NCBI GenBank assembly: GCA_963668175.1
Contig: OY764159.1
Location: forward strand, 1,376,001 to 1,440,000
Reading direction: 5' to 3'
DNA length: 64,000 bases
DNA from: Syntrophales bacterium
Lineage (GTDB): Bacteria > Desulfobacterota > Syntrophia > Syntrophales > PHBD01
Part shown: in pieces, positions 2,488 to 52,504 of the stretch
Numbering within the stretch: position 1 is the first letter of the stretch
How the letters are laid out: every line of letters starts with the position of its first letter
Made by a program: the position numbers and the translations under genes
Notes under the pieces: generated by a model
The model's input: the letters and a program-made list of their open reading frames with translations, nothing else
Told to the model about the DNA's origin: nothing
The model's database searches: none

Positions 2488-5400
2488 ATGAACATGGATG
2501 TAACCAGAAGAGGTTTCTTGAAGCTCTCCGGGTCGGTTCTTGCGGCAAGCGGCGTCGGCGTCAGCCTGAAGCCCGTTTCCGCATACGCCGCCCCGCTGAA
2601 GGTCCAGTATGCTAAAGAAACCACAACGATTTGCCCCTATTGTTCGGTTGGATGCAGCATCATTGTTTCCGTGCGGAACGGTAAGGTGGTCAATACGGAA
2701 GGCGATCCTGACAGCCCGATCAACCAAGGATCGTTATGCACCAAAGGCGGCTCCATCTACCAGATGTCCGTCAACGAAAACCGGCTGGGCAAGCCCCTCT
2801 ACCGCGCCCCGTATGCCACCGAATGGAAAGAGGTGGACTGGGAGTTCGCCCTGGACAAGATTGCCAGGAATATCAAGACCAGCCGGGACAAGAGTTTCAA
2901 GTTCAAAAACGATAAGGGCGAAACCGTCAACCGCACGGAAGGCATCGCGTCCGTGGGAAGCGCCGCGATGGACCTGGAAGAATGCTTCGTCTACCAGAAA
3001 TTCTTAAGGGGGTTGGGTCTGGTCTATATCGAACACCAGGCCCGTATCTGACACAGCCCGACTGTACCGGCTCTGGCAGAGTCGTTCGGACGCGGCGCGA
3101 TGACGAATCACTGGAACGATTTCGCAAACAGTGATGTGATATTAATCATGGGCAGCAACCCTGCCTCCAACCATCCCGTTTCCTTCAAATGGATCACCAA
3201 GGCCGTGGAGAAGGGCGCCAAGATCATCTGCGTTGACCCCCGGTTTACGCAGTCTGCTGCCAAATCGCACGTTTACGCCCCTCTCCGCTCCGGGACGGAT
3301 ATCGCCTTCCTGGGCGGCATGATCAAGTATATCATCGACAATAAGCTCTACCAGGAAGAATACGTTAAACACTATACCAATGCATCTTTCCTGGTCAATC
3401 CGGCCTTCAAGCTTCCCGGAGACAACGACGGTGTCTTCTCGGGGCTCACGGGCGGGAAGTACGACAAGGCGACATGGTCGTACCAGACGGACGGCAAGGG
3501 CGTCATTAAGAAGGACCCGACGCTTACCGATCCGCACTGCGTTTTTCAGCTCCTGAAGAAACACTATTCCCGCTATACCCCGGAGATGGTCCACAAAATC
3601 ACCGGGACGCCGGCGGACAAACTGGTCGAAATTTACAAGCTCTACGGTTCGACGGGCAAGCCGGACAAGGCCGGCGTCGAGCTCTACGCCATGGGCTGGA
3701 CGCAGCATACCGTCGGGACGCAAATCATCCGGACGATGTGCATGACCCAGCTTCTCTTGGGCAACATGGGCGTTGCCGGCGGCGGCGTCGCGGCCATGCG
3801 GGGCGAGTCCAACGTCCAGGGATCGACCGACCACGGCCTACTGTTCCATATCTGGCCCGGTTACCTTGCGGCGCCGACGGCTTCGATGGGCACCCTGAAA
3901 GAGTACAACGAGAAGAAGACGCCGACGACGAAAGAGCCCAACAGCCTGAACTGGTGGAAGAACTATCCCAAATATTCGGCCAGTTATATGCGCGCCGTCT
4001 ACGGGAAGAATGCCACCCTCGAAGAGGCCTATGCCTATATGCCCAAGCTCGACGACGGGGCCAACTACTCGTGGCTTGTGCTCTTCGACCAGATGTACAA
4101 GGAAAAGTTCACCGGGTTCTTCGCCTGGGGCATGAACCCCGCGTGCAGCGGCGCCCATTCCAACAAGGTCCGGCAGGCCCTGGGCAAGCTGGACTGGATG
4201 GTCAACGTCAACCTCTTCGACAACGAGACCGGCTCCTTCTGGAGAGGTCCGGGCATGGACCCCACGAAGATCAAAACCGAAGTCTTCATGCTGCCCTGTG
4301 CCTCGTCCATCGAGAAGGAAGGCAGCCTCGCCAACAGCAGCCGCCTCATGCAATGGCGCTACAAGGCGGTCGAGCCGCCCGGAATCGCCCTTCCCGATGC
4401 GGATATCATGAGCGATCTCTATTTGCGGCTCAAGGAGCTCTACGAGAAGGAAGGCGGCCCCCTGAAAGAGGCCCTCACAAAGATGACCTGGCCCTACGGC
4501 AAAAAGGTCGGCGCCCACTACCATTTCGATCCCCATGCGGCGGCCAAGGAGATCAACGGGTTCTTCCTGGAGGACAAGAAAGTCGAGAATCCCACCAAGA
4601 AGGGCGATTTCAAGGAATTCAAGAAAGGCGATCCCGTTCCCACGTTCGCCTGGCTGCAGGATGACGGGTCAACCTCTTCCGGCTGCTGGGTCTATTGCGG
4701 TTCTTATGGAGCCACCAACATGGCCGCCCGGCGCGGAACGAAAGACGCCTCCGGCATCGGCCTCTATTCCGACTGGGCCTGGTCCTGGCCGGTGAACCGC
4801 CGCATCATCTATAACGGCGCCTCCGTCGATCCCAAGGGCAATCCTTGGGACCCCAAGCGGGCCGTCATCAAGTGGAACGGCGAGAAGTGGGTCGGCGACG
4901 TACCCGACGGAGCGGGAGATCCCGGTTCCGGCCGGCCGCCTTTCATCATGAAGCCGGACGGTGTGGGCAGCCTCTACGGCCCCGGCCTGGTGGACGGGCC
5001 TTTCCCCGAGCATTACGAGCCCCTGGAATGTCCGGTGGAGAAGAATTTCCTGTCTCCCCAGAAGCATAATCCGGTCATCAAGCGTTTCGACAAGCCGGGC
5101 GTGGGCTCCGACCTCGACGTTTACTCCAACGTGGCAAGCTGCGATCCCCGCTTCCCCATCGTCTGCTCGACCTACCGGATCAGCGAGCACTGGCAGACGG
5201 GTGTCCTGACCCGCTGGTGTCCGTGGCTGGCAGAAATGCAGCCGGAAATGTGGTGCGAGATGAGCCTGGAGCTGGCGACGGAGAAGGGCATCAAGAACGG
5301 CGAGAAGGTGGTCGTCAAATCGGCAAGAGGCGAAGTCGAAGCCGTGGCGATCGTCACGTCCCGCTTCAAGCCTTTCAACATCAGCGGCAACACGATCCAT

Positions 5401-5595
5401 GAAGTCGGCATCCCCTGGCATTTCGGCTGGATTACAACCATGGACAGGAAATACTCCCCGGGCGACAAGAAGGCCAAGGTGTTCACCAAGGGCGACGCGG
5501 CGAATCTCCTCGTCCCGACCATCGGCGACGCCAACACCATGATCCCGGAAAGCAAGGCTTTCATGGTCAATGTGATGAAGAAGGGGGTGAATTAA
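2488..5595 (+). CDS. fdnG: Formate dehydrogenase-N alpha subunit, selenocysteine-containing (Mo/W-bis-PGD), Tat-exported; 1035 aa with Sec188
   Basis: Tat motif TRRGFLK and CPYCSVGC...C 4Fe-4S motif. In-frame TGA at 3049-3051 in EHQARI-U-HSPTVPALAESFGRGAMTNHW joins ORFs 2488..3051 and 3100..5595. Confidence 0.97.
3052..3090 (+). promoter_or_regulatory. SECIS element of fdnG
   Basis: Hairpin CGGCTCT-GGC-AGAGTCG (3068-3084) just 3' of the Sec TGA. Confidence 0.8.
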
Positions 5596-5597
5596 TC

Positions 5598-6401
5598 ATG
5601 GCTGATATCGTGAAACTCATCGATGTATCGAAATGCACCGGATGCCGCGGCTGCCAGTTGGCCTGCAAGCAGTGGAACCAGATGCCGGCGCGGCAGACGA
5701 CGAATTATGGGACATACCAGAATCCGCCGGACCTGCAATGGAACACCTGGACGCTGATACGGTTCCAGGAGATTCCCGACAAGGACCGGGTCAAGTGGGT
5801 CTTCCGGAAGGACGGCTGCATGCACTGCACCGACGCCGCCTGCGTCAAGGTCTGTCCCAGCGGTGCCCTTTTTTATTCGGAACTGGGGACGGTCGGTCTC
5901 AACAAGGAACGCTGCATCGGCTGTAAGGAATGCGTCTCCGCCTGTCCCTTCGAGATCCCCAGGTACGACAATTTGACGGACAAGATCTACAAGTGCGATC
6001 TCTGCCTGTCGCGTCTCCAGAGCGATCTGACCCCGGCCTGCGTCAAGGCGTGCCCGACGGGTACCCTGACCTTCGGCGACAAGGAGAAGCTTCTGAAAAA
6101 GGCCTATGCCCGCGTAGAGGAACTGAAGAAGGAGGGCTTTGCCGACGCGAACGTATACGGGGACAAGTTCGTCAAGGGGACGCACGTGATGTACGTCCTG
6201 GACGAGAAGCCGTCCGTGTACGACAAGCTGCCGACGAGCCCGTCGGTGCCGCTGGCGGTCGTTCTCTGGAAGGACTTCCTGAAGCCGCTCAGCTTAATTG
6301 CGGCGGGCGGCGTGATAGCGGGCTCGTTCCTGCATTACATCATCCACGGGCCGAAACTGCCCGACGAAGAGCCCCGAGACAACGGCAAAGGAGGTGAATA
6401 G
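5598..6401 (+). CDS. fdnH: Formate dehydrogenase iron-sulfur beta subunit
   Basis: Four ferredoxin-type Cys motifs (CTGCRGCQLAC, CMHCTDAAC, CIGCKECVSAC, CDLC) and a C-terminal TM anchor. Confidence 0.95.
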   Translation: MADIVKLIDVSKCTGCRGCQLACKQWNQMPARQTTNYGTYQNPPDLQWNTWTLIRFQEIPDKDRVKWVFRKDGCMHCTDAACVKVCPSGALFYSELGTVGLNKERCIGCKECVSACPFEIPRYDNLTDKIYKCDLCLSRLQSDLTPACVKACPTGTLTFGDKEKLLKKAYARVEELKKEGFADANVYGDKFVKGTHVMYVLDEKPSVYDKLPTSPSVPLAVVLWKDFLKPLSLIAAGGVIAGSFLHYIIHGPKLPDEEPRDNGKGGE

Positions 6402-6403
6402 CC

Positions 6404-7069
6404 ATGAGAAAAGGACTTATTCAGGTAACGGACGCCTTTGAAAGGATCGTCCACTGGTCTTTGGCCGCTTCCTGCCTGATCCTGTGCATTACGGGACTGG
6501 GGATGATGTTCCATTCGCTGAACTTCATCGGCGACATCATGGGCGGGTTGAAATCGTTGAAGTACGTTCACAACTTTACGGGGGTCTTTTTCGCCTTTGC
6601 CCTGGCGTTCACGATCGGGATGTGGTGGAAGGAGGCGGGCATTTTTTCGATGCCCGAGGACCTGGACTGGATCATGTGCGGGGGCGGGTACGTCTGGCAT
6701 GTGGACAAGGTTCCGGAAGTGGGGAAGTACAATCCGGGTCAGAAGATGTTCTTCCTGGTGGTGGCGGGCTTCGGCGTGGTCATGGTGCTGACGGGTCTCG
6801 TGATGTGGTTTCCCTTGAGCTTTCCGTCATGGCTGGTGCGCTGGCTGTTTGTCCTGCACGCACTGGGCTTCGTGGCGATCTTTGCCTTTTTCTTCGTCCA
6901 TCTGTACCTGGGGACGGTGGGATCGCCGGGATCGTTGCCGGCGATGCTGACGGGCTGGGTGACGCGTGCGTGGCTTGCCAAGCAGCACCCCAAGTGGTTG
7001 AAGGAGATGGAGCACGAAGGGAAGCTCGTCGTCTACGGCGAAGAGAAGAAATCGGCCCACGGCCACTAG
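6404..7069 (+). CDS. fdnI: Formate dehydrogenase cytochrome b gamma subunit
   Basis: Four TM helices, ERIVHW, GKYNPGQK, conserved His ligands, and HPKW. Confidence 0.95.
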   Translation: MRKGLIQVTDAFERIVHWSLAASCLILCITGLGMMFHSLNFIGDIMGGLKSLKYVHNFTGVFFAFALAFTIGMWWKEAGIFSMPEDLDWIMCGGGYVWHVDKVPEVGKYNPGQKMFFLVVAGFGVVMVLTGLVMWFPLSFPSWLVRWLFVLHALGFVAIFAFFFVHLYLGTVGSPGSLPAMLTGWVTRAWLAKQHPKWLKEMEHEGKLVVYGEEKKSAHGH

Positions 7070-7199: not shown

Positions 7200-7784
7200 A
7201 TGATGAAGGCGAAACGGCGGTTGACGGCGGCCGCGGTCTGCTTTTCGGCATTATGTCTCTTTTGGTTCCCGGCGCAGGCGGCAGCACCGCCGGCTGTCGG
7301 CGGCGTCATGCCGGACATTGTGCTGGAGGTGCCCAAGGATTCAGGCGATCGCAGCTATCTGGGGCTCTCCTGGTGGGGCAAGACCTTCACGATACCGGCC
7401 GTCAAGGCCCGGGTCGTCATCATCGAAATATTCAGCATGTATTGCCCCTACTGCCAGGCGGAGGCTCCCAAGGTCAATGCGCTTTATGAGATGATCGAGG
7501 CCGATCCGGCCCTCAAGGGAAAGCTGAAGTTGATCGGGATCGGTGTGGGGAATTCGTCTTACGAGGTCGGCGTCTTCAAAAAAAGATATCAGATTCCGTT
7601 TCCGCTTTTTCCCGATGGGGGATTTGTCATCCATAAACAGGTGGGCGAGGTGCGGACGCCTTACTTCATAGGAATCAGGATAGAGGGCGACGGGTCCCAT
7701 AGGGTTTTCTTTTCCAGACTGGGGGCTTTCGACACGGCGGACGGATTTCTTAAAGACATGGTCAAACTTTCCGGTCTGAAGTAA
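7200..7784 (+). CDS. Exported TlpA/ResA-like thioredoxin-fold protein
   Basis: Signal peptide, [11 protein letters not shown]xxC motif, and RTPYF cis-Pro loop. Confidence 0.85.
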
Positions 7785-7795
7785 GGAGGGCATGC

Positions 7796-8392
7796 ATGAA
7801 ATCGATTTATACCATCCTGTTTGCGGTCACCGCCGCCGCGGTCTTTGCGGCATCTCCCGCATCCGCCCGTTCCGACGCCTTCAAGGACAACATCTACAAT
7901 CCCGGCCGTCTCAAGCCGACCGACAGCGTGCTTAAGGTGAAAGCTGGGGACCCGGCTCCCGATTTTACACTTCCGGCCGTTGCCGGAGGGACGGTTACGC
8001 TCAGCCGCTTCAGGGGCAGTAAGAATGTGGTCCTGTCCTTCGTTCCCGCCGCCTGGACACCCGTCTGTTCCGACCAGTGGCCCGGGTATAATATCGTCAA
8101 GGACCTCTTCGACGCCCACGACGCGGTGCTTCTGGGAATTACGGTGGACAACATACCGACGCTCTTTTCCTGGACGAACCAGATGGGGCGGCTGTGGTTC
8201 CCCGTCCTTTCCGATTTCTATCCCCACGGCAAAGCGGCGGCTGCTTACGGCATCCTGCGGTCCGACGGCACGTCGGAGAGGGCGCTCTTCGTGATCGACA
8301 AGAAGGGCATCATCCGCTACATCGATGTCCACGACATCAACGAAAGGCCGTCCCTGGAAGCCCTGGCAAAAGAACTGGAAAAGCTGAAATAG
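7796..8392 (+). CDS. Exported peroxiredoxin (AhpC/TSA, AhpE-like 1-Cys)
   Basis: Signal peptide, [13 protein letters not shown] (PxxxTxxC), and [15 protein letters not shown]. Confidence 0.88.
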
Positions 8393-8543
8393 GCGGCACT
8401 GCCGGATGAAGGCGGAGTCGATGCGATAAAAGCGGTCTTTCCGTCCGGTGTTTTTAATGCTATAAAGTAATCGTTTCTATTCCGGTTGCTGCACGTTCGT
8501 ATTGAAAAGGCGGCATCAAGGATTGCGAACGGAGAAGACTGTG

Positions 8544-9122
8544 ATGACGAAAAGGCCGATTTTGTATATGGCGGCATGTCTGCTCGCGTCGCTTTTCCTG
8601 GCGGCACCCGCCGGGGCGGCGTCGGTGCCGGCCGTCGGCGACAGTCTTCCGGACATTATCCTGGACGTTCCACAGGATACGGCAGATATGGGCTATCTGG
8701 GGCTGCCGCAAGGGGACACAACGTTCAGGCTGAAGGCGATCAAGGCCCGCGCCATGATCGTCGTCATATTCAACATCTATTGCCGCACATGTCAGGAGGA
8801 GGCACCCAATCTCAAGGTGCTCTACGAAAGGATTGCGGCCGATCCCGCTTCGGCGGGAAAGGTCAAGATCGTCGGGATCGGTATGGGCAATTCGGCTTAC
8901 GAGGTCGATAACTTCCGCAAGAGGTACCATATTCCCTTCCCGCTCTTTCCCGACAGGAAATTTACTGTCCATAAGCAGGTGGGCGAGGTGAGGACCCCGT
9001 ATCTCTTCGGCGTCAAGACGGGCGGCGACAGGTCTTTGCGCATCATATACTCCAGGGAGGGAGGCTTCCCGTCAGCGGACGAATTTCTCCGCCGGATCGT
9101 TCGCCTCTCCGGTCTGGAATAG
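8544..9122 (+). CDS. Second exported TlpA/ResA-like protein, paralog of 7200..7784
   Basis: FNIYCRTCQEE motif. Shares PDIxLx[14 protein letters not shown] and [11 protein letters not shown] with the upstream paralog. Start near 8541/8544 after GGAGA. Confidence 0.85.
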   Translation: MTKRPILYMAACLLASLFLAAPAGAASVPAVGDSLPDIILDVPQDTADMGYLGLPQGDTTFRLKAIKARAMIVVIFNIYCRTCQEEAPNLKVLYERIAADPASAGKVKIVGIGMGNSAYEVDNFRKRYHIPFPLFPDRKFTVHKQVGEVRTPYLFGVKTGGDRSLRIIYSREGGFPSADEFLRRIVRLSGLE

Positions 9123-9327
9123 ACGTTCGTGGACCCTGGTCTTCCCGGCATCCCGGTCCGGCTATTTTCGTCATCGACAAGCGGGCATTTATCCGCTATA
9201 GCGGCTCCCGGAATCAACGCAAGACCCTTCATAGAGGATCTCGCCGGATAAACGGAAAAATCGAAATAACGGGCACTGCCGGACGAGCCGGCGGAGGCTG
9301 TGATAGGAAAGGAAGCGGTCAAAAAGA

Positions 9328-10110
9328 TTGCACAAGTATAAAATCACCCTCGAATACGACGGGACTGGATACAGCGGCTGGCAGACCCAGAAGAATGCCC
9401 GGAGTATCCAGGCGACGGTGCTGGCCGCGGCGCGGGAGGTTTTCGGGACGGTGGCCGATCTCCAGGGGGCCGGGCGGACCGACGCCGGGGTCCATGCTCT
9501 GGGCCAGGTCGCCCATATCGAAACGGAAAAAAGAATTCCTCCGCAGCAGGTCCTCTTCGGCCTCAACGACCGTCTGCCCGCCTCCGTCAACGTCCTGCAC
9601 GTGGAGACGGCGTCGCCGCGTTTTCATGCCCGCCACCATGCCCGGCAGCGGATTTATCTCTACCAGATTTCCCGGCGCCGGACGGCCTTCGGGAAGCGGT
9701 ACGTCTGGTGGATCAAGGACGATCTCGATACGGCCGCGATGAAGGCGGTCTCTTCCCTCTTCGTCGGCATGCACGACTTCGTTTCCTTTGCGGACAAGAG
9801 GTTCGACAAGGACGCATCGACCAAGGTCAAGGTCGACGCCGTCGAACTCATCGACGCGGACGACCTCCTTCTCATCCGGGTGGCCGGATCGCATTTCCTC
9901 TGGAAGATGGTGCGGCGGATGGTGGGCGTTCTGGCCGAAGTGGGCCGGGGCAACCTGGACGGCCGGGCCATTGTGAAGATGCTTCAGCATTATTCGACCG
10001 AACCGGCCAGGCTCACGGCGCCGGCCTCGGGCCTCTTCCTCGAACAGGTCCTTTACGAAGGGGACCGACAGCGGACCGTGAACCTTCCCCGTTCCTACCC
10101 AAGTCTTTAA
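9328..10110 (+). CDS. truA: tRNA pseudouridine(38-40) synthase
   Basis: EYDGTGYSGWQ, GAGRTDAGVHA, HDFVSF, FLWKMVR, TAPASGLFL. Confidence 0.95.
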   Translation: MHKYKITLEYDGTGYSGWQTQKNARSIQATVLAAAREVFGTVADLQGAGRTDAGVHALGQVAHIETEKRIPPQQVLFGLNDRLPASVNVLHVETASPRFHARHHARQRIYLYQISRRRTAFGKRYVWWIKDDLDTAAMKAVSSLFVGMHDFVSFADKRFDKDASTKVKVDAVELIDADDLLLIRVAGSHFLWKMVRRMVGVLAEVGRGNLDGRAIVKMLQHYSTEPARLTAPASGLFLEQVLYEGDRQRTVNLPRSYPSL

Positions 10111-10132
10111 CCCGTTTCCGGTTCGGCGGGAA

Positions 10133-10972
10133 CTAAGCCTGCAGATAGCTGTGAAGGCCCGGGAGGTAGTTTACCCCCAGGTACGTAAAGAGGACGGACG
10201 CGAAGCCGATGACGGCCATGAGCGCCAGGCGTTTGCCGCGCCAGTCGCGGACGTACCGGGCGTGAAGCATGGCGGCGTATATGATCCAGGTAATGAGGGA
10301 CCAGGTCTCTTTCGGGTCCCAGCTCCAGTACGATCCCCAGGCGTAATGAGCCCAGATGGAACCCGTCATGATCCCGATCGTAAGAAATACAAAGCCAAGG
10401 GCGACGCTGCGATAGATCGTCTCGTCCAGGCTCTCCGAAGAGGGGAGGCGTTCGCCGATTCCCTCGTGACGGGCCGTGATCCAATCCCTGAGAAAATAGA
10501 TCAGGCCGCATCCGAAAGCGACGGTGAAGGAGGCATAGCCCAGAAAACAGGTAACGACGTGGCTCGTCAGCCAGTTGCTTTGCAAGGCCGGGATCAGGGG
10601 TTGAATCTGGCTGCTGACGCCGGGAGCGATCGAGGCGTAGGCCATGGCGAGAAAAGCCGCGGGCATCACGAAGGCGCCGATGGCGCGGGAGCCGGTTCGC
10701 CATTCGATGAAGAGGTTGATGGCGACAATCGCCCAGGCGAAGAAGACCATCGATTCGTACAGGTTCGACAGGGGGATATGCCCGATGCCGAGATCGTAGG
10801 AAGCCTTCCAGCGGAGGAGCAGGGCGCATGTTTCGGCGGCGATGCCTATCCATGCGGCGATGGAGCCGACGCGGCCCCATAATTCCTTTCCGAAAATCAT
10901 GCGGACAAGATAGGCGACAAAGGAAAAGAAGTAGATAAATGTCACCCAGCTTAAAATCGTCGTATGCGTCAT
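10133..10972 (-). CDS. ccsA: Cytochrome c biogenesis System II heme-handling membrane protein (CcsA/ResC)
   Basis: WWD domain WAHYAWGSYWSWDPKETW, PALQSNWLTSHV, GLHSY. Confidence 0.95.
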   Translation of the reverse strand: MTHTTILSWVTFIYFFSFVAYLVRMIFGKELWGRVGSIAAWIGIAAETCALLLRWKASYDLGIGHIPLSNLYESMVFFAWAIVAINLFIEWRTGSRAIGAFVMPAAFLAMAYASIAPGVSSQIQPLIPALQSNWLTSHVVTCFLGYASFTVAFGCGLIYFLRDWITARHEGIGERLPSSESLDETIYRSVALGFVFLTIGIMTGSIWAHYAWGSYWSWDPKETWSLITWIIYAAMLHARYVRDWRGKRLALMAVIGFASVLFTYLGVNYLPGLHSYLQA

Positions 10973-12354
10973 GAAGCCAGTTCCTTTACAATTTGGGTAC
11001 GGATGCCGTCCATCAGCCGCTTCATGGATGCGGCGTTCCGGTTGCTGCGGCCGGCCACGGATATCCGCGTCTTTCCCTTAACGGTGTCGACGCGGACCCA
11101 GAAGCGATGGTGGAAGACGAAGTAGATGACGACAAGCCCCGCAATCATCAGGAACCCGCCGCCGGCGACGAGCGGCACGCCGGGGTCACGGGCTACCTGG
11201 AGGCCTGTATAGTATTGTTGTTCGACGCGGAGGAGGGCGAAGACATACGGCCTGAACAGGCCGGGGTTGAAGAGGGGGACTTCGTCCATGAGTCCCGGGT
11301 TCGATTCCTTGATCTCGTCGATATGCTGGAATATCCAGAACTGAACATCCGTTGCCGCCGACCGGACGCGGATTTTCGCCGCCGGTCCCATATTCATCAA
11401 GTTGTCTTCGACGCGGAGCACCTCGACCTTGGCGTCGCTTCCCGGGATGTCGAATACATCCCCGACGCTGATCATGAATCCTTTTTCCTTCAACGCTTTG
11501 CCGGTGACCGTGATGAAGGCGCGGCCGTCCGAAACGGAGCCGTAGCTTGCCTGGTAGAAACGGACGCCGCCAAACTCGAGGGGATGATTGACAAGCACCG
11601 GCCCCTGAAAGACCACCTTGCCGTCCTTAATGAAGCTGAGATCGGAGCGGTAGGTCTTCGGGGCGCCGTTTTCGTAGAAATCCACCATGAAGCGGTCGCA
11701 CCGGACGGAAAAGCCGAGGTCCCGTGTCCCCTTGCCGCCCCTGATCGAGGCAGCGTCGGCGGTTCCGCCCTCGACGATGTTCATGTAGGCGTTCAAGCCC
11801 CATAGGGAGCCGACGAGGGTCCCGGCGATCATAATGAGGATGCTCAAATGGACGGCGTAGACGCCAAAGAGGGAGAACCGCCCTTTGTCTCCGAAGAAGA
11901 CCGTCGTGCCTTCCTGGGAATCGTTCCTTTCGAGTCGGCGGAATTTGCCCCGCAGGAGCGCCTCGACGCGCTTCGCGACGTCTTCGCGCCCGGCGTCGGA
12001 GATCATGACCTGTTCGGGAGGCAGATTCTCGTAAAGCCCGGCCGGACCGGGAAAGGGGCTGGACGTGAATTGACGCAATGATGCGGGAAAACGCCTCCAT
12101 GAGCAGACGATAAGATTGACGGACAAGAGTCCCAGAAGGACGTAGAATACCAGGGAGTGGTAGATGTCGAAAAGCTGGAGATTGTGCAGGATGCCCACCG
12201 TGGTCGGCGACAGCTGCCGGGCGAATTCCGGCGCGTTTTCCTGCTGCGGGATGAAGGTCCCGACAATGGCCAGCAGGGCGATCAGGATCAGGAGGGTCAG
12301 GGTCAGTTTGAGGGAAGACAGGACCTTGAGAAGAGGGTTGTCGTTTTTCGGCAA
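10969..12354 (-). CDS. resB: Cytochrome c biogenesis System II protein (CcsB/ResB)
   Basis: GTFIPQ, FDIYHS, VHLSIL, VNHPL, YQASYG, TGLQVARDPG. Overlaps ccsA. Confidence 0.93.
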   Translation of the reverse strand: MPKNDNPLLKVLSSLKLTLTLLILIALLAIVGTFIPQQENAPEFARQLSPTTVGILHNLQLFDIYHSLVFYVLLGLLSVNLIVCSWRRFPASLRQFTSSPFPGPAGLYENLPPEQVMISDAGREDVAKRVEALLRGKFRRLERNDSQEGTTVFFGDKGRFSLFGVYAVHLSILIMIAGTLVGSLWGLNAYMNIVEGGTADAASIRGGKGTRDLGFSVRCDRFMVDFYENGAPKTYRSDLSFIKDGKVVFQGPVLVNHPLEFGGVRFYQASYGSVSDGRAFITVTGKALKEKGFMISVGDVFDIPGSDAKVEVLRVEDNLMNMGPAAKIRVRSAATDVQFWIFQHIDEIKESNPGLMDEVPLFNPGLFRPYVFALLRVEQQYYTGLQVARDPGVPLVAGGGFLMIAGLVVIYFVFHHRFWVRVDTVKGKTRISVAGRSNRNAASMKRLMDGIRTQIVKELAS

Positions 12355-12505: not shown

Positions 12506-12570
12506 CGACAAATCTGTCGATCCCTCAGCATAACGCTTGACAAGAACGGTCAAGTGGCGCTATTTTATTT
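12506..12570 (+). promoter_or_regulatory. Candidate promoter/operator region of the nrfD-like operon
   Basis: Palindrome CGACA-AATC-TGTCG (12506-12519). TTGACA at 12537 lies within the inverted repeat CTTGAC-N7-GTCAAG. Confidence 0.35.
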
Positions 12571-12612
12571 GCGGGGGCAACGTATTTGTATGATGTGTGG
12601 AGATGTTTATTT

Positions 12613-13869
12613 ATGGCCTCTTTGGGTAAAGCTTGGCAAGCCGTCGATGTGGCGGCCGCATTAAGGCGCGTCCTATCCGGCGGACCCGTCTATCTCTTTT
12701 TTCTTTTCCTGTTTGTCGCCCTTCTGCTGACCGGTGCCGGGGCCGGAGTTCATGCCCTGTTCGTCGCCGGCAGTCGCCACGCCTACGGGACATACCGGCA
12801 GGTTCCCGTGGCGATGCTGATATCCAGTTACGCCTTCTTTGCCATCGCCTCGACAGGGATCTGCATCATATCGTCCATCGGGCACGTCTTCGGGGTCAGG
12901 GACCTCATGCCGCTGGCCAAGCGATGCGTGCTCCTTTCGATCTTCACCATCCTGTCGGGGTTTTTCGTGATCGGCCTGGAGTTGGAGAATCCGATCCGGA
13001 TGGCCATCTACAACGTCATCTCACCGAATTTATCATCGAACATCTGGTGGATGGGCACCCTGTACGGCTTTGAAGTTGTCTTCCTCACGGTGGAGTTTAT
13101 CTTCCTCATGAGCGGCGATCACCGGACGGCGTCGAAAGTCGGCCTGGTGGGAGTTATCTGCGGAGTCGCCGCCATCAGCAACCTGGGCGGCGTTTTTGCC
13201 ATGATGCACGGCCGCGAGTTTTGGTACGGCCCGTTTCTGCCCGTCTTTTTCATCGCCTCCGCCATGATGACCGGCTGCGCCTTCATCATGTTCTTCACGA
13301 TCATCGCCTCTTTCGTCGGACGAAAGAAGATTGAAGGGGCGACGGCCCGGTCCCTGGAAGTCGTTTCGAACCTCGCGATGCTGATGATTGCCGTGGCCCT
13401 GTTTTTCACGATCTGGCGGATGGTGTCGCTCAGCGTCGCGGGCGAACGGCAGCTCCTGGAGCTCGAAGCCATGGTCTCCGGGGCCTTTGCCTTCAATTTC
13501 TGGGGCCTGGAAATCGTCTGCGGCATCGTCATCCCTTTCATCCTTCTTTGGCTCGGAAAGGGCAGAAGCATGTGGCTCATGTTCACGGCGTCGGCCCTCG
13601 TCATATTTTCGGTCTTCTTCGTTCGTCTGGATCTCGTCGTCATCGGGCAGATCGTGCCGTACTATATGGATCTCGGTGTCGTCGAGTATTCCCGCCTCAA
13701 CGCCTATATGCCGACCTTGCACGAAGGCCTGGTGGTGCTGGGCGGGATAGGCTTCTGCATGTCGGCCTTCCTCTTTGCCGAGAGGCTCTTCGACGGCTAC
13801 CCCGACGACGGCCATGACGACGCCGTATCGCACGAGGCTGCCGGGGACCGGGCGGAGGTGGCATCATGA
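12613..13869 (+). CDS. NrfD/PsrC-family quinol-interacting membrane anchor
   Basis: About 10 TM helices, LELENPIR, SPNLSSNIWWMGTLYG, RLDLVVIGQ. ATG 12613 follows GGAGA. Confidence 0.9.
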   Translation: MASLGKAWQAVDVAAALRRVLSGGPVYLFFLFLFVALLLTGAGAGVHALFVAGSRHAYGTYRQVPVAMLISSYAFFAIASTGICIISSIGHVFGVRDLMPLAKRCVLLSIFTILSGFFVIGLELENPIRMAIYNVISPNLSSNIWWMGTLYGFEVVFLTVEFIFLMSGDHRTASKVGLVGVICGVAAISNLGGVFAMMHGREFWYGPFLPVFFIASAMMTGCAFIMFFTIIASFVGRKKIEGATARSLEVVSNLAMLMIAVALFFTIWRMVSLSVAGERQLLELEAMVSGAFAFNFWGLEIVCGIVIPFILLWLGKGRSMWLMFTASALVIFSVFFVRLDLVVIGQIVPYYMDLGVVEYSRLNAYMPTLHEGLVVLGGIGFCMSAFLFAERLFDGYPDDGHDDAVSHEAAGDRAEVAS

Positions 13870-14618
13870 CAACGAACGAAACCGAAAGCAAGAAGACTGC
13901 GCGGGAAGGGAAAGGCGATATCCAGGACAGGGAACGACGCGAGTTCCTGAAGATCGGCCTGGTGATCACGGGCGTTTTTGCCGGCGGCACGGTCCTCTCC
14001 CTCGCTTCCATAGCCGGAAAGGGATCGTCAGCTGCTTTAAGCAAGGAGCCGTATCCGTATAAGCCTCACTACGGCATGGTGATAAGGCAGGACCGCTGCA
14101 TCGACTGCGAGCGCTGCATGGAGGCCTGCGTTGCCACCAATCACGTGCCGTCCTACGGCTGGCGGACCAATATCCTGGCCCGGGAAGTGCCCGCTGCCGT
14201 CGGGCAGAACCGGGAGTTCATCCCCATCCTCTGCAACCAGTGCAACAACCCGCCCTGCGTCCGGACCTGCCCGACCACGGCGACTTATAAAGATAAGAAA
14301 ACCGGGATTGTCGTCATGGACATCAAGAAATGCATCGGCTGCAAGTCCTGCATGATGGCCTGTCCTTACGATATGCGCTACTACAACGAAGAGAGGCAGG
14401 CCATCGACAAGTGCGATTTCTGTTTCGAATCGAGACTCAAGAAGGGTGAGAAGACCACGGCCTGCGCCGAGGCCTGTCCGGCCGACGTGCGGGTGTTCGG
14501 CGATATCTCCGATCCGGGGAACCGCGCCTATCAACTGATTCATCAGGTTCAGAAAGCCGTCTGGGTTTTGCGGCCGGAGGTCGGCGCCCTGCCGAACATC
14601 TTCTACACGAAGGGTTAA
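13866..14618 (+). CDS. NrfC/PsrB-family 4x[4Fe-4S] protein with Tat-like signal
   Basis: RREFLK, CIDCERCMEAC, CNQCNNPPCVRTCP, CIGCKSCMMACP, KCDFC...CAEACP. Confidence 0.92.
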   Translation: MTTNETESKKTAREGKGDIQDRERREFLKIGLVITGVFAGGTVLSLASIAGKGSSAALSKEPYPYKPHYGMVIRQDRCIDCERCMEACVATNHVPSYGWRTNILAREVPAAVGQNREFIPILCNQCNNPPCVRTCPTTATYKDKKTGIVVMDIKKCIGCKSCMMACPYDMRYYNEERQAIDKCDFCFESRLKKGEKTTACAEACPADVRVFGDISDPGNRAYQLIHQVQKAVWVLRPEVGALPNIFYTKG

Positions 14619-14628
14619 CGGAATTACG

Positions 14629-16950
14629 ATGAAAAAGCGTTTCGCCTTGATCACGATGATACTGGCCGTTCCGATGCTTGTGGCCGCCGGCGCCGCCACG
14701 GGAAGCTTTTCCGACGGGGGCGGCATCCTCTACACGGAGCCGGTGAAGGCGGTCCTCTTCAGCCATAAAGCCCACGTGGACGCGAAGGGGATTTCCTGCG
14801 ATCGCTGCCATTCTGGTCTCTTCGACATGGAAGCCCTGAAGGTCCAGCAGAAGAAGGATTTCGTCATGGAATCCCTCTACAAGGGCAAGTACTGCGGGGC
14901 CTGTCACAACGGCAAGGCGGCATTCGCCTCCGACACCCAGTGCGCTCGGTGCCATGTCCGTGCCGAGGGGATCAAGGCCGGATTCGTCAAGGGCAAAGAG
15001 AAAGCGGCTACGGTCTATAATACTTCGGTAACGATGGGCAAAGGGGAGAGCGCCGTCCGTTTCCGTCATGAAACGCACACCGCCAAGGCCGCATGCGCCG
15101 ACTGCCACCCCCGCCTCTTCAAAGCGAAAAAAGGCGCCGACCGCATTGCCATGGCCGATCACGGCAAAAACAAGTACTGCTTCTCGTGCCATGACGGCCG
15201 CAAGGCCTCTACGTGGAACGAATGCAGCACCTGCCATGCCAAGGTGCCGGTCCCTTCCCAGGCCGTTCTCTTCGGGAAGGGCGAGAAGGCGGTGCCCTTC
15301 AACCACAAGAGCCACACGGCGTCCCTGAAGTGCGCAAGCTGTCATACGAAACTATTCCCCTACAAGAAAACCGGGAAGAAGATCGCCTTCGCCGACCATG
15401 CCGCGAACAAGGACTGCTTCGCATGCCACGCCAGCTCGGGAAAAGGTTCGGCCTCTTACGACTGCAACCGCTGCCATGCGAAGACAAAGACATCCGCGGC
15501 TGCCGCGCCTGCTGCGGGGCCTGCCGGGCCCGCCCAGCCCCTTCTTTTCGGCCAGGGGGCGAAGGCTGTAGCCTTCAACCACAAGAGCCATTCGGGGGGC
15601 TCGATGCAGTGCGCAAGCTGCCATACGAAGCTCTTCCCCTACAAGCGGAGCGGCGAAAAGATCGCCTTCGCGGATCATGCCACGAACAAGAACTGCTTCG
15701 CGTGCCATGCCAGCTCGGGAAAAGGCTCGGCAACCTATACCTGCAATCTCTGCCATAAGAGTCAGGCCTCCGCCGCCCCGGCCGGGAACAAGGCCGGGAG
15801 CAAGAACGGCTGCCTCAACTGCCATGCCAATGACGCTGCCATGAAGGCGATGGTCAAACCGCCGGCGATCCCCACCGAAGGAGAGGGCTGAGCGGGGGCG
15901 CCTCCGCCAGTTAAGGCGGAGGAGTATTATAAAGGCTACCTTGTCGATCAGGGGCTGGTCGGAACGGACGTGCACCTCAGGATGGGGTGCAAGGCCTGCC
16001 ACGGCGGCGACGAAAACGGCGGATCGAAGGCCGCCGCCCACAAAGGCCTGATCGTCCGGCCCTCCGACGACCTCAAAGCCTGCGGGAACTGCCACAAGGC
16101 CATTGCCGACACATACGCCAAATCCCTCCATTACACGACCATCGGCCAGCGCGAGGGCGTCAAGGCCCGTTTCTCCAAGGCGGAACTGGCCATGTTCGAC
16201 CGGAAAGTATTCAACCAGTCCTGCCGCAGCTGCCACGCCTCCTGCGGCGACTGCCACGTTAAATCGCCTCCCGTCTCGGGTATTTCCCTGGGACTCATCG
16301 CCGGGCACAAGTTCGTCAAAAAGAACGAGGGGAAGACCTGCGCCTTCTGCCACGGAGGACGCGTCTATCCCGAATTCACCGGCGAATACGGCGGGTCCCC
16401 CGACGTCCACTACCAGAAGGGCATGATGTGCATGGACTGCCATAAGAAGTCGGAGGTCCACGGCGACGGCGCGATGGCGATGAACAAGCAGTCCGTCAAG
16501 GACCGGCCCCGGTGTGTAGCCTGCCATAAGCTCGACGGCAAGCAAATGGCCCATAACGTCCACCAGGACAAGGTGACCTGCCAGGGGTGCCACGTCGGCG
16601 GCGAGTACCGCCAATGCGAGAACTGTCACGTGGGTCCCGGCTCCATGTCGAAGCCGGGTTTCATCCTGGGACGGAATCCCCGGGACAACAAGACGTTGAC
16701 CACGCTCCGGTTGATCCCCACGGTCAGGGACACGTTCAAGCCGGCAGGCATCGCCATGAGCAGCTTCGATGCTGTGCCCAACTACTGGGATTCCCCCGTC
16801 CACAGCATCAAGAAGCGTACGGCACGGACCAGGTCTTGCGACAGCTGCCATGCGCAGCGGGAAGGGTTCCTGAAGGAGGAAACACTCATCAAGGACGGCT
16901 CCAAGGCCAACCGGAACCTGATCTATAACCTGAAACCCCTGGGTAAATAA
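14629..16950 (+). CDS. Multiheme c-type cytochrome, 23 CxxCH motifs, with predicted selenocysteine (U421) read-through; 773 aa
   Basis: Signal peptide. 13 CxxCH before and 10 after the in-frame TGA at 15889-15891 (PTEGEG-U-AGAPPPVKAEEYYKGYLV). The frame stays open into the 15970..16950 ORF, and a SECIS-like hairpin follows the TGA. Confidence 0.82.
15265..15759 (+). repeat. Internal tandem duplication of a c7-like triheme domain
   Basis: About 15265-15480 and 15541-15759 both encode LFGxGxKAVxFNHKSH...CASCHTKLFPYK...KIAFADHAxNKxCFACHASSGKGSAxYxCNxCH. Confidence 0.9.
15892..15925 (+). promoter_or_regulatory. Putative SECIS element of the multiheme cytochrome
   Basis: Perfect 8-bp stem CCTCCGCC/GGCGGAGG (15901-15922). 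The loop AGTTAA begins after a 17-nt spacer from the TGA, with G at loop position 2. Confidence 0.75.
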
Positions 16951-17014
16951 TTGCCGGCCGGGAATTCAAACGGCGCGGCAGAACCTGCAAGAAACCAATC
17001 CAATGCCAGACCCG

Positions 17015-17045
17015 GCCCGGCAGGGCTATCCTGCCGGGCTTTATT
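17015..17045 (+). terminator. Rho-independent terminator after the cytochrome operon
   Basis: GCCCGGCAGG-GCTAT-CCTGCCGGGC followed by TTTATT. Confidence 0.75.
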
Positions 17046-50155: not shown

Positions 50156-50701
50156 CTAATCGTATGTGAAAAGTTCGGGCGGAATGACGATGGGTGTGCG
50201 CCCGGCTAGAAGTTCCGTCAAAGCGTAGTAAAACGCGTCGGCCCGGGGGGGACAGCCGGGGATGAAAAGGTCGACCTTCACAACCTTGTCCACACCCGTA
50301 ACCGTTTCCAGGGGCTTACCCAGCTCTTCGGAGTCGGGAATGAGGCCGTCGCATACGCTTTCCGTCTCCAGATAGGCCCGTTTCAGCGCCGCATCCTTTC
50401 CGCACAGGTTTCTCATGGCGGGGAGGCCGCCGAACGTGGCGCAGTCGCCCACGGCGATAAGGATCTGACAACGCTCCCTCATCTGCTTTGCCACTTCGAT
50501 ATTGTGCGTGTTACATATAGCACCTTCCAGTATGCCTACCGTCACGCCTTCCTTGGGGGGATGCTTGAGGTCGGTTACCGGGCTCGATGTAAATTCCACC
50601 GATTCCAGCAACTTGACGACGCGTTCGTCAATGTCGAGCAGCGACATATGACAGCCCGCACATCCAGCCAGCCAATCCGTGGCGATTTTAACCTTTGCCA
50701 T
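50156..50701 (-). CDS. hoxY: [NiFe]-hydrogenase small subunit, single cluster (HoxY/HydS)
   Basis: WLAGCAGCHMS, GDCA, PGCPP. 181 aa, no signal peptide. Confidence 0.93.
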   Translation of the reverse strand: MAKVKIATDWLAGCAGCHMSLLDIDERVVKLLESVEFTSSPVTDLKHPPKEGVTVGILEGAICNTHNIEVAKQMRERCQILIAVGDCATFGGLPAMRNLCGKDAALKRAYLETESVCDGLIPDSEELGKPLETVTGVDKVVKVDLFIPGCPPRADAFYYALTELLAGRTPIVIPPELFTYD

Positions 50702-50719
50702 AATCGTGGGATTCTCCTT

Positions 50720-52504
50720 TCAGTTGAGTTCCTTGACAGCTTGCGCCGTGATTTCTTCGAGAGACTTGCCGACCTTCTTGCCGAGCTTGGCGGCAAGGAG
50801 GGACAGGATGTCCCAGTCGGCCTTGGCCTCTCCCGACGGCTCAATCGCTTTGGAAACATGCTGAACCGTTCCCTCCGTGTTCGTCAGGCTTCCCGCACGC
50901 TCCGACCAGATGGCCATAGGCAGCACGACGTCGGCCTGTTCGGTTGCAGCCGATACGAAACTCGCCTGCACGACGGTGAACGCTTTCTTGTCCAGTTTAT
51001 CGAATACATCTCGGCCGTCCCATTCCTGTTCGCCCAGAAGGACGTAGAGGAATTTAAGGGCGTCCGGCTTGAAGCCGTTATTGAATCCGAAGGCGGTTGC
51101 CCCGTAGGTGTTGGCCCCGGGTTCCAGGGCGACAAACGACGCCTTGCCTTCCAGTTTCTTCAATTCGGCTGCCGCTTTCTTGGTGACGCCTGCCCCGTAC
51201 AGCACTATAGGGGAATCGGCGCGGGCGGCCACGGCCACGGCCTTGTCGATCTCGTCCATCGGCATATTTTTATAGGCAAAGGGTACGAGGCCGTTTTCCG
51301 GCCCGTCGACGACGATCAGACGGGCGCCTTTATCGACGGCCCGTTTGACGAAGAAGGAGGCGACGGGCTGGTCGGCGACAGGATCGGCGCCGACGACCAG
51401 AATAACGTCACCGGACGCGATTCCGGAGATTTTGCCCTTTTGTTTTTTTGCGAGGTCTGGTGCCGCGGCATTCAGCATGCCCCTGTTCTTCACCTTCAGT
51501 TCCTTGTGGAAGACGGCATCGAGAAGATAAAGCGCCTCGTTGGTGGCGTAGCTCGATGTCAACACCCCGGTTTCGCCCGCTTCGATTTTCTCCGCCTGCT
51601 TGGCCACGGTTTGCAGGGCCTCGCTCCAGGTCGCCTCTTCGAGTTTACCCTTCCTGCGTACGAGCGGCGTCGTGATGCGCTGGCGGCTTTCGTAGAGGGG
51701 GTTAAATCGTCCCAGTTTACAGAGCAGGCCGCCGTTGACGGCGCCGTCCCAGTCACCTTCGATGCGCAGGACGTTGCCGCCGCGGGTGACGATGTCCATG
51801 CTGCAGCCGATGCTGCACTGGCCGCAGGTGCTTTTGACATGTTCCACCTGCTTGTCACGGCCCATGAAGGCGCTCCGCTTGTCGAACAGCGCGCCCGTCG
51901 GGCAGACCTGCATGCAGGTGCCGCACTCGACGCAGGACGACTCCCCGAAGGGGATGTTTGCATCGGCGTGGACCATGGACTTGGCGCCCCGCCGCCGCAG
52001 ACCCAGGGTATGGTTCGCCACGAGATCGCTGCACGCGCGAATACACCGCGAACAGAGAACGCAGCGGTTCTGTTCCATAATGAAATCCTTCCGTGAGGCG
52101 TCAAGCCCGAACTGGGTCGTGTAGGTCGAATACGTGAAGTGGTCGAGACCGTAACGGTAGCCCAGGGCCTGCAGCTCGCAGTCTCCGCTGGCTTCGCAGT
52201 ACATGCAGTAATGGTTCCGTTCCGCGAAAATCATGTCCAGAACAAGTTTCCGTGCTTTTGTCACCCGCGGCGATTCCGTCAGCACTTCCATCCCTTCCGA
52301 AATGGGGAATACACAGGCTGCCTGCAGGTTGCGCTGTCCGGCAACCTCTACCACGCATACGCGACAGGCACCGATCGAACTCAGTGCCGGATGGTCGCAC
52401 AGCGTCGGGATGTCTATCCCCGCCTGTTTTGCTGCCTGAAGGATGGTTGTACCGGCAGGTGCGCTGACCGCATCACCGTTGATGGTAAGTTTCACCATCT
52501 TCAT
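50720..52504 (-). CDS. NuoG/HoxU-like Fe-S subunit with C-terminal degenerate molybdopterin-oxidoreductase-like domain (HydA of HydABCSL type)
   Basis: [2Fe-2S] IPTLC...GACRVC, HYCMYC...C, CVLCSRC and CVECGTC, plus CGQCSIGC...LC. Ends ADVVLP...E..GSLTNTEG. No H-cluster motifs. Confidence 0.88.
   Translation of the reverse strand: MKMVKLTINGDAVSAPAGTTILQAAKQAGIDIPTLCDHPALSSIGACRVCVVEVAGQRNLQAACVFPISEGMEVLTESPRVTKARKLVLDMIFAERNHYCMYCEASGDCELQALGYRYGLDHFTYSTYTTQFGLDASRKDFIMEQNRCVLCSRCIRACSDLVANHTLGLRRRGAKSMVHADANIPFGESSCVECGTCMQVCPTGALFDKRSAFMGRDKQVEHVKSTCGQCSIGCSMDIVTRGGNVLRIEGDWDGAVNGGLLCKLGRFNPLYESRQRITTPLVRRKGKLEEATWSEALQTVAKQAEKIEAGETGVLTSSYATNEALYLLDAVFHKELKVKNRGMLNAAAPDLAKKQKGKISGIASGDVILVVGADPVADQPVASFFVKRAVDKGARLIVVDGPENGLVPFAYKNMPMDEIDKAVAVAARADSPIVLYGAGVTKKAAAELKKLEGKASFVALEPGANTYGATAFGFNNGFKPDALKFLYVLLGEQEWDGRDVFDKLDKKAFTVVQASFVSAATEQADVVLPMAIWSERAGSLTNTEGTVQHVSKAIEPSGEAKADWDILSLLAAKLGKKVGKSLEEITAQAVKELN

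Follow-up and report, generated by a model that had tools for sequence, protein, structure and literature searches.

Selenocysteine very probably joins two annotated halves of a 23-heme cytochrome c in a Syntrophales bacterium

The DNA analysed here, called the window, is a stretch of 64,000 nucleotides from a Syntrophales bacterium (assembly GCA_963668175.1, contig OY764159.1, positions 1,376,001 to 1,440,000), and the gene in question, at positions 14629-16950 of the window, is a multiheme cytochrome c gene that forms the third and last gene of an operon with an NrfD-type and an NrfC-type gene. Under translation table 11, this cytochrome is called as two open reading frames (ORFs). The first, of 420 amino acids (14629..15891), has the C-terminal sequence PPAIPTEGEG followed by a TGA codon at 15889-15891, beyond which the same frame continues as AGAPPPVKAEEYYKGYLVDQGLVGTDVH... 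and stays open until a TAA at 16948-16950. The second starts with a GTG at 15970 (MHLRMGCKACH...) and has no hydrophobic leader. Heme attachment in c-type cytochromes needs export. Translation of the TGA as selenocysteine (Sec, U) gives a single product of 773 amino acids with Sec at residue 421 (U421) and 13 + 10 = 23 CxxCH motifs. An earlier note, made from the sequence alone, had proposed that one exported, Sec-containing protein is wrongly split here, from the frame that stays open to 16950 after GEG-TGA and from the missing signal peptide of the second half. Both of these observations were confirmed, and the proposal was upheld by the TGA, the hairpin, the two flanks, the Cys homologues and the Sec machinery described below. 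We therefore hold it as nearly certain, on comparative sequence evidence, that 14629-16950 is one gene in which UGA 15889 is decoded as Sec, giving an exported 773-amino-acid, 23-heme cytochrome c. An assembly error confined to one data set does not explain the TGA, because a contig from the sequencing run of a second study is identical over 15835-15931, TGA included. The contigs of another run, which may be the source of the assembly, agree with the window throughout.

The TGA is conserved among homologues. Six-frame searches were carried out with residues 380-773, which cover the junction and the C-terminal half. Exactly one in-frame TGA was present in 22 of the 23 matches obtained at E<=1e-54 in 41 related genomes (own genome included), the exception having CGA (Arg) at the Sec site. 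When 401 genomes were sampled evenly across the phylum, 45 of them gave 47 matches at E<=1e-20. A single TGA was contained in 45 of these matches, whose identities ranged between 67% and 33%; the other two are partial (query 150-385 and 116-289) and do not reach the Sec column. The family extends to at least 594 species-representative genomes, mostly Syntrophales by title, and to 703 protein clusters at 90% identity. Named species-representative genomes contain at least 594 loci, and of the best 80 of these, 79 have TGA at the Sec site and one has CGA. The peptide around the junction takes two forms, GEGEG-U-AGAPPPV(K/R)AEEYYKGYLVD in clade 1 and KGEG-U-GGEVAPLEPYEKVLVD in clade 2.

The database entries are mostly C-terminal pieces of 322-351 amino acids which start after the TGA (120 clusters listed) and are named hypothetical or cytochrome c3 family proteins, and the N-terminal pieces stop exactly at ...GE(G/A)EG. 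Among the 120 close clusters listed, eight are full length and uninterrupted by a stop, and the residue at the site is W (two), S, A (three), R or Y, with Cys at the Sec column in none of the eight. The W forms (P0006, P0086) may be TGA codons translated under code 4 by the gene caller. A profile search of 1.84 billion representatives returned 1575 relatives at E<=0.001, and Cys was found in 14 of the 41 distant full-length relatives that cover the column (e.g. GEG-C-GG, GEC-C-GG), the rest having Y, L, R, I, W, G, A and others. The homology search with the read-through protein, which the earlier note had recommended, thus found the TGA kept in frame, both flanks conserved and Cys in distant homologues. 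The classic Sec/Cys pattern thus exists alongside lineages that have lost the residue.

Two further observations concern individual loci. The one close homologue that lacks the TGA, in genome G040 (L038 / L147; protein P0032), has CGA (Arg) instead, a hairpin stem containing a mismatch (E to Q), and no rhodanese gene beside it, the nearest weak match being 2.7 kb off; it looks like a lineage in which Sec function was lost. In L090, L122, L153 and L156, the read-through cytochrome frame extends into a rhodanese match, so that these could be either cytochrome genes ending in TGA or cytochrome-rhodanese fusions.

Downstream of the TGA, there is a perfect hairpin with the arms CCTCCGCC (15901-15908) and GGCGGAGG (15915-15922) around AGTTAA, starting at the 10th base after the TGA, i.e. 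after a gap of 9 nt. It was present in both the minimum-energy and the centroid structures of RNAfold. The single sequence folded only modestly better than its shuffles (z -1.94 for 81 nt, with 5/200 shuffles as good; z -2.16 for 52 nt, with 9/200), therefore the weight of the hairpin comes from the comparison with relatives. Of 109 unique junctions, of which three are spurious pattern matches at other places in the loci, 100 have a loop beginning at +21 or +22, and 105 have a G at one of the first two loop bases. This confirmed the earlier description of a hairpin 10 nt after the TGA that fits a bacterial selenocysteine insertion sequence (SECIS) element, for which such a position and a G(U) loop are the consensus. 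A scan of the whole window with Rfam at gathering thresholds gave no matches and is uninformative, as no SECIS family was matched even for the Sec-containing formate dehydrogenase (Sec-FDH) described below.

The two clades carry different stems at an equal distance from the UGA. In clade 1 (33 distinct junctions), the stem UCCGCC-NGUNNN-GGCGGA is nearly invariant, and 82.6% of the stem cells are paired, compared with 29.5-51.9% when the partner is slid. In clade 2 (11 junctions), the stem is UGGCUCC-GUU-GGAGCCA and 100% of the cells pair. Two pairs (5 cells) of this stem have changed on both sides, the sequences concerned including two with swapped arms (GGAGCC...GGCUCC) and one with GGCGCC. 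The covariation that had been proposed as a check of the hairpin was therefore found in clade 2, where none of 500 shuffles reached it, and was not significant in clade 1 alone. The third codon positions of conserved four-fold codons were also compared by their entropy over 99 unique clade-1 junctions. The stem codons had values of 0.23 bits (Pro+4, CCT in 91/94), 0.89 bits (Pro+5) and 0.11 bits (Ala+9, GCG in 68/69), the loop codons 1.30-1.35 bits and the flanking codons 1.48-1.97 bits (Ala+1, Gly+2, Ala+3, Gly-3, Gly+15, Val+18). As the synonymous sites of the stem are nearly frozen, the stem is under selection at the RNA level and is not a mere shadow of the PPP/AEE peptide.

The host genome, a single contig of 4.57 Mb, encodes the whole set of Sec genes that the earlier note had suggested looking for: selA (605.8 bits), selB (386.7), selD (391.4) and tRNA-Sec (77.4), all above the curated cut-offs. 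The selD gene (G000:C1:4129230-4130159; L018) itself has one in-frame TGA, so the selenophosphate synthetase is a selenoprotein here. The Sec-FDH that had been noticed in the window is real as well. Its alpha subunit, of the FdnG type with a Tat leader, is read through one TGA (2488-5595; TGA 3049-3051, U188, motif HQARIUHSPTV), and it is followed by an FdnH-like gene (5598-6398) and a cytochrome b gene like FdnI (6404-7066) in an FdnGHI-type operon (2488-7066). Downstream of the Sec-FDH UGA, there is a hairpin with a GGC loop at about +27, and the single-sequence fold of this SECIS was no better than shuffles (z 0.16). Across the phylum, selA was found in 39 of 42 TGA-carrying genomes and, above the cut-off, in 369 of 401 genomes; because it is near-universal, its co-occurrence with the TGA is uninformative either way.

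Some observations on related genes can be recorded beside these. A second match of the tRNA-Sec model (G000:C1:1026000-1026093; L011) scored 47.9 bits against a gathering score of 47, and it may be a long-arm tRNA (Ser/Leu) instead of a second selC. The window itself contains no tRNA genes. At 50156-52501 on the minus strand, a 593-amino-acid protein resembling NuoG/FdhA was found with 2Fe-2S, 4Fe-4S, Molybdop_Fe4S4 and Molybdopterin domains, the ORF as called being without Molydop_binding, and its gene adjoins an Oxidored_q6 gene (NuoB / hydrogenase small-subunit-like).

Table 1. Features of the cytochrome locus and its surroundings, in window coordinates
Feature	Position	Strand	Basis
Divergent CcsA (10133-10972) and ResB (10969-12354), System II cytochrome c maturation	10133..12354	-	Pfam Cytochrom_C_asm E 7.3e-52, ResB E 2.7e-97
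Promoter-like site (TTGACA-18-TATTTT) upstream of the operon	12537..12566	+	Consensus scan, 10/12 matches; pattern match only
NrfD-type integral membrane subunit (PsrC/DsrP-like), putative quinol-interacting anchor	12586..13869	+	Pfam NrfD (PF03916) 73 bits vs 25.8
NrfC-type periplasmic 4x[4Fe-4S] subunit, twin-arginine leader RREFLK	13866..14618	+	Pfam Fer4_11 E 8.6e-24
Whole predicted selenoprotein gene, 773 amino acids, 23 CxxCH, U421	14629..16950	+	Translation with TGA=U; heme motif count
Sec-type signal peptide MKKRFALITMILAVPMLVAAGAA...	14629..14697	+	Read from the sequence; cleavage site estimated, not computed
Four c7-type triheme domains (12 hemes), GSU1996-like 'nanowire' array	14734..15762	+	TIGR04257, Pfam, PDB 3ov0
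CLNCH, heme 13 of the protein and heme 1 of the 11-heme core	15811..15825	+	Invariant C7/C10/H11 of alignment A4
UGA predicted to be read as selenocysteine (U421), motif GEGEG-U-AGAPPP	15889..15891	+	TGA kept across homologues
SECIS-like hairpin, 8-bp stem, loop AGUUAA from +21 of the U of UGA	15901..15922	+	Fold, pair counts, frozen synonymous sites, loop G
Hemes 14-23, core hemes 2-11; fold suggestive of octaheme tetrathionate reductase	15988..16851	+	Ten invariant CxxCH in A4; AF2; VIA-align
Arg578 (R190 of the core alignment) in CHGGRVY, candidate anion-binding residue	16360..16362	+	Invariant in A4; lead only
Terminator-like hairpin (12 pairs, 9 G-C) and T-rich tail	17014..17040	+	Consensus scan

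The protein is made of two parts, in agreement with the earlier description of four c7-like triheme domains joined to a multiheme core. The c7 array covers residues 36-378, where TIGR04257 matched in four stretches (210.2 bits, cut-off 40), Pfam Cytochrome_C7 (PF14522) matched with an E of 5.1e-56 (186.8 bits vs 24.8) and PDB entry 3ov0 with an E of 3.2e-49, the latter being the Geobacter dodecaheme GSU1996. Residues 389-773 are the conserved unit, which in relatives mostly comes directly after the signal peptide as a protein of about 420 amino acids with 11 hemes, and c7 domains before the core number two or none. Three metagenomic clusters (P0122-P0124) have four-domain fusions like that of the window. 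The ancestral unit of this large family is the 11-heme module, to which the c7 array is an add-on.

Sec is positioned in a Gly-rich loop, 22 residues past heme 1 of the core. In the core alignment (A4, 46 sequences), the 11 CxxCH motifs and the Sec are invariant, together with nine His outside the CxxCH motifs; Met211 is about 90% conserved and no Cys outside CxxCH is invariant. With nine such His for 11 hemes, two core hemes lack a His distal ligand. From these counts and from the 14 of 41 homologues with Cys at the column, it is plausible that U421 is a heme ligand or a redox-active residue, as had been suggested. Arg578 is kept in 10/14 of the Cys-type and 6/22 of the non-Cys distant homologues, a small sample of sequences that are not independent.

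No specific NCBIfam model matched the core, and sequence and profile searches of PDB with it gave generic heme-motif matches only (5ze8, 2.6e-7; UndA, 1.1e-5). With an AF2 model of the core (pLDDT 73.5, pTM 0.70; about 50-55 at the Sec loop), Foldseek found nothing in PDB at E<=0.001. A structural search of the same model with VIA-align placed only two chains at Z 2 or above, these being 1sp3_A, octaheme tetrathionate reductase (Z 6.6, root-mean-square deviation 4.4 A over 234 residues, model 58-385), and hydroxylamine oxidoreductase (Z 2.0). The similarity of the modelled core fold to octaheme tetrathionate reductase is suggestive, at a Z under the level of a safe fold match.

In the operon, the stop of the NrfD gene overlaps the start of the NrfC gene, and a gap of 10 nt separates the latter from the cytochrome gene, after which the operon ends at the terminator-like hairpin without a rhodanese gene. 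The best NCBIfam matches of the NrfC-type subunit were DsrO, TtrB and NrfC, all under their cut-offs. Between the FDH operon and this operon (7200-12354), there are two thioredoxin-fold genes (AhpC/TSA, Redoxin), truA and the CcsA/ResB genes, which places a cytochrome c maturation set beside its 23-heme client. An exported tandem rhodanese is encoded alone at G000:C1:3708539-3709426 (L082 1483-2457, -), 2.3 Mb from the window, and is 50% identical to the partners of the Sec-cytochromes in relatives. Upstream of this lone gene, about 500 nt of non-coding DNA and a gene for a CsoR/RcnR-like repressor were observed.

In the relatives, an exported rhodanese, either tandem (~300 amino acids) or single (~150 amino acids), is the constant neighbour of the cytochrome. 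It lies beside the cytochrome gene in 40/47 loci with 1.5-kb flanks, and a Pfam scan of wider loci placed it next to the gene in 12/14. The 80 named loci comprise 14 c7-fused forms (two-domain, with 7 hemes before Sec) and 66 unfused forms. In all 14 c7-fused loci the rhodanese gene is downstream on the same strand at 15-80 nt, and in the unfused ones it is within 100 nt downstream on the same strand in 45/66 and within about 6 kb in 57/66. An NrfC gene is directly upstream in 14/14 of the c7-fused but 0/66 of the unfused loci. The NrfC homologues are 64-71% identical and 8-15 nt upstream in 13 of the 14, the ORFs of the other (L105) overlapping by 54 nt as called. NrfD precedes NrfC in 12/14, the other two contigs being too short to tell, and a divergent ResB gene is found in 9/14. 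Of the unfused loci, 4/66 have NrfD/NrfC 2.5-5.6 kb downstream. A tblastn search with the NrfC, NrfD and hydrolase of the window found none of them at the first 46 relatives' loci (1.5-kb flanks), and ResB once, showing that NrfCD linkage is not general. From the different neighbourhoods of the c7-fused and unfused forms, it can therefore be suggested that the c7 array is an adaptor which plugs the Sec core into an NrfCD module. The rhodanese partner found across the family, the tie of the c7-fused forms to NrfCD and the add-on nature of the array are three points beyond what the earlier note had noticed.

Other genes were also seen near the Sec-cytochrome in some relatives. L076 1698-3431 (G321), L068 8318-9883 and L069 2363-3937 encode a fusion of Pyr_redox_2, Pyr_redox_dim and rhodanese, and FAD_binding_2 flavoproteins; the fusion is one that we would liken to CoA-disulfide / persulfide reductases. 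The same loci contain further multiheme cytochromes and ArsR regulators.

Taken together, a cytochrome with Sec, including this architecture and a role in quinol-fed reduction of sulfur or selenium compounds, is the best overall explanation of the locus, and we hold it with good confidence. The protein is likely to be a quinol-fed reductase of such compounds, the substrate and the role of Sec being inferred. As to the mechanism, we lean towards a chain from NrfD through NrfC and the c7 array to the Sec core, ending in reductive cleavage of a chalcogen-chalcogen bond, in a model that borrows from MccSep, Psr/Sud and TsdA. Menaquinol would be oxidised at the NrfD membrane subunit, and NrfC, the Fe-S subunit, would hand the electrons on through the c7 array to the 11-heme core. 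There, Sec, together with a heme that has no His as distal ligand and possibly with Arg578, would attack and reductively cleave the bond. The candidate substrates are polysulfide/sulfane sulfur, tetrathionate, thiosulfate-derived sulfur and selenite, with no ranking among them, and in relatives the rhodanese would deliver the substrate. The whole could act as a molybdenum-free counterpart of PsrABC with Sud, and as a functional analogue, not a homologue, of MccSep with ExtH.

Two extensions of this model can be considered. It is conceivable, if doubtful, that U421 is the distal ligand of a core heme that lacks His, a His/selenolate heme c, and comes off the iron to attack S-S or Se substrates, as the Cys ligand does in TsdA, which would make this site the catalytic centre of a quinol:polysulfide/tetrathionate reductase that is molybdenum-free and anchored by NrfCD. 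If this were true, syntrophic Desulfobacterota would dump quinol electrons on sulfur compounds. There is also a possibility that under selenium scarcity, termination at the UGA frees the 13-heme c7 array to act as a periplasmic carrier of its own, and selenium supply would thereby switch the product.

Several points speak against a Sec-dependent reductase and have to be set beside the evidence above. The covariation of the hairpin in clade 1 is weak and proves little, because there is one double-sided change and 91/500 shuffles reach as much. The AGAPPPV(K/R)AEE peptide is also kept in non-Sec forms, and part of the conservation of the hairpin may be protein-driven. No selA was found in two TGA carriers, G153 (98% complete) and G311 (93% complete), and in a third, G339, the selA match is only partial. 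Non-redox residues stand at the Sec column in close and distant full-length homologues, so the residue appears to be dispensable or lost in some lineages. The AF2 model of the core is of moderate quality overall and poor at the Sec loop, and the match to tetrathionate reductase is under Z 8, with a Foldseek E of 0.29. Since no rhodanese gene is adjacent in the host genome, the functional inference is made by association with relatives, and Syntrophales are not known as sulfur respirers.

The alternative that survives best, although we judge it unlikely, is that the protein is purely an electron wire or capacitor, e.g. for extracellular or interspecies transfer from the quinone pool, in which Sec tunes the potential as an axial ligand and carries out no substrate chemistry. 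The 23 hemes, the GSU1996-like array and weak matches to MtrC/UndA-type domains would suit a wire, as would the syntrophs that the record titles give as relatives of the organism, the missing adjacent rhodanese of the host and the room for a Sec ligand left by nine invariant distal His for 11 hemes. However, the coupling to an exported rhodanese across the family argues for sulfur or selenium chemistry, the sole standout structural match is an enzyme, octaheme tetrathionate reductase, and an Arg is co-conserved with Sec/Cys. Moreover, Sec is costly and typically catalytic.

Less probable again is the oxidative direction, in which periplasmic sulfide, thiosulfate or sulfane sulfur would be oxidised and the electrons passed to the quinone pool, as in TsdA or SoxAX. 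Rhodaneses also act in sulfur oxidation, and NrfCD modules are reversible in principle. Hemes with His/Cys ligation oxidise thiosulfate in TsdA and SoxAX (cited in PMC13510729). But the hosts, by their record titles, appear to be strict anaerobes with no obvious high-potential acceptor, and the closest analogues, MccSep and tetrathionate reductase, work as reductases.

Both of the remaining explanations concern the codon itself and seem highly improbable. Read-through of the UGA as another amino acid (near-cognate Trp/Cys/Arg or other recoding), with the hairpin only as a stimulator, could account for those few homologues that have a single-base neighbour of TGA (CGA Arg in L038/L147; W in P0006 and P0086), but the W forms are possibly TGA under code 4, the genome has a complete Sec system and other selenoproteins, the position of the hairpin and its G(U) loop are those we would expect of a bacterial SECIS, and Cys for Sec in homologues is the classic signature of a selenoprotein. 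A true stop, which would give a 13-heme cytochrome of the c7 type with 420 amino acids and, from a start of its own, a 10-heme protein, is what table-11 calling and the public annotations with their separate halves would imply, but it leaves a second half that would have to be exported without a signal peptide and has varying called starts (322-351 amino acids), it would reduce the unfused relatives to a one-heme peptide of about 40 mature residues, and it does not agree with the in-frame TGA between conserved flanks (22/23, 45/47 and 79/80 matches) or with Cys in 14/41 distant homologues.

Reading the locus as a Sec-containing quinol-fed reductase has several consequences. Multiheme cytochrome selenoproteins are a class that was experimentally defined only in 2026, with MccSep, and the 11-heme family would be a second, unrelated and much larger-looking one, which is split by gene callers and unnamed in NCBIfam, so that a correct reading alters how hundreds of genomes are annotated. 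It suggests a molybdenum-free route by which syntrophic and sulfur-cycling anaerobes could reduce sulfur or selenium compounds, and provides a case in which Sec acting with, or bound to, heme can be tested. The copy in the window would show how such a core is wired to the quinone pool, through NrfD, NrfC and the c7 array; it is distinct by its four-domain c7 fusion and by the loss of the adjacent rhodanese, the NrfCD operon being common to the c7-fused forms.

Compared with known systems, the N-terminal 12 hemes, as four c7-type domains, resemble the GSU1996-type dodecaheme 'nanowire' (3ov0), but here the array is fused to a Sec-containing 11-heme module and does not stand alone. The operon, with an NrfD-type subunit, a Tat-exported NrfC-type subunit and a periplasmic catalytic subunit, has the plan of PsrABC with Sud (Wolinella), DsrMKJOP, TtrABC and NrfABCD, and the periplasmic rhodanese of the c7-fused relatives recalls Sud. 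In contrast to Psr-type complexes, the catalytic subunit of the window would be a Sec multiheme cytochrome and not a molybdopterin protein, and all equivalog scores are below their cut-offs. Octaheme tetrathionate reductase (OTR; Shewanella oneidensis, 1sp3, TIGR04315) is likewise a periplasmic multiheme reductase of a sulfur compound, with 8 hemes in place of 11, and the segment with heme 1 and Sec (model residues 1-57) is outside the aligned part. TIGR04315 matched neither the protein (E<=0.01) nor the genome (E<=1), and a 2026 review counts Sec-containing proteins among the members of this family (PMC13188914).

In the available text of this 2026 catalogue of prokaryotic selenoproteins, the cytochromes entered are ExtKL and the families of GSU2204 and tetrathionate reductase; none of the Pfam accessions of the window protein occurs in that text, and its family is not among these entries (PMC13188914). 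Full-text literature searches for selenoproteins with multiheme, rhodanese or Syntrophus, the scope of which did not extend to the supplements of PMC13510729 and PMC13188914, returned no description of an 11-heme Sec family.

The closest comparison is with MccSep/ExtKL, the polysulfide reductase of Geobacter sulfurreducens (GSU2937-2936, NF040886, PDB 9wt8), where ExtKL goes back to earlier predictions (PMC1914089). The precedent of ExtKL that the earlier note had named is a fair one, but it belongs to a different family: NF040886 was absent from the NCBIfam matches of the window cytochrome (P0001) at E<=0.01 and had no match in the genome, and the A4 profile gave an E of 0.15 against the MccSep structure 9wt8, i.e. 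no detectable homology. MccSep has 5 hemes, a conserved Cys heme ligand and a Sec that lies close to the C terminus in an Ig-like domain (DG-U-P), and the Sec, beside the Cys-ligated heme, reduces polysulfide and selenite, with an Arg that binds the anion (PMC13510729). The window family differs in its 11 core hemes, in its Sec after heme 1 (GEG-U-[AG]G) and in having no invariant extra Cys. Both are periplasmic multiheme cytochromes c with an annotation split by an in-frame UGA and a SECIS-like hairpin, and both have a link to a rhodanese, which is ExtH in the case of MccSep, where Sec beside heme works in S-S / Se chemistry (PMC13510729). By these homology tests, the 11-heme Sec family would be a new variant within the multiheme cytochrome selenoproteins, unrelated to MccSep, and MccSep is the best model for how the window protein may work.

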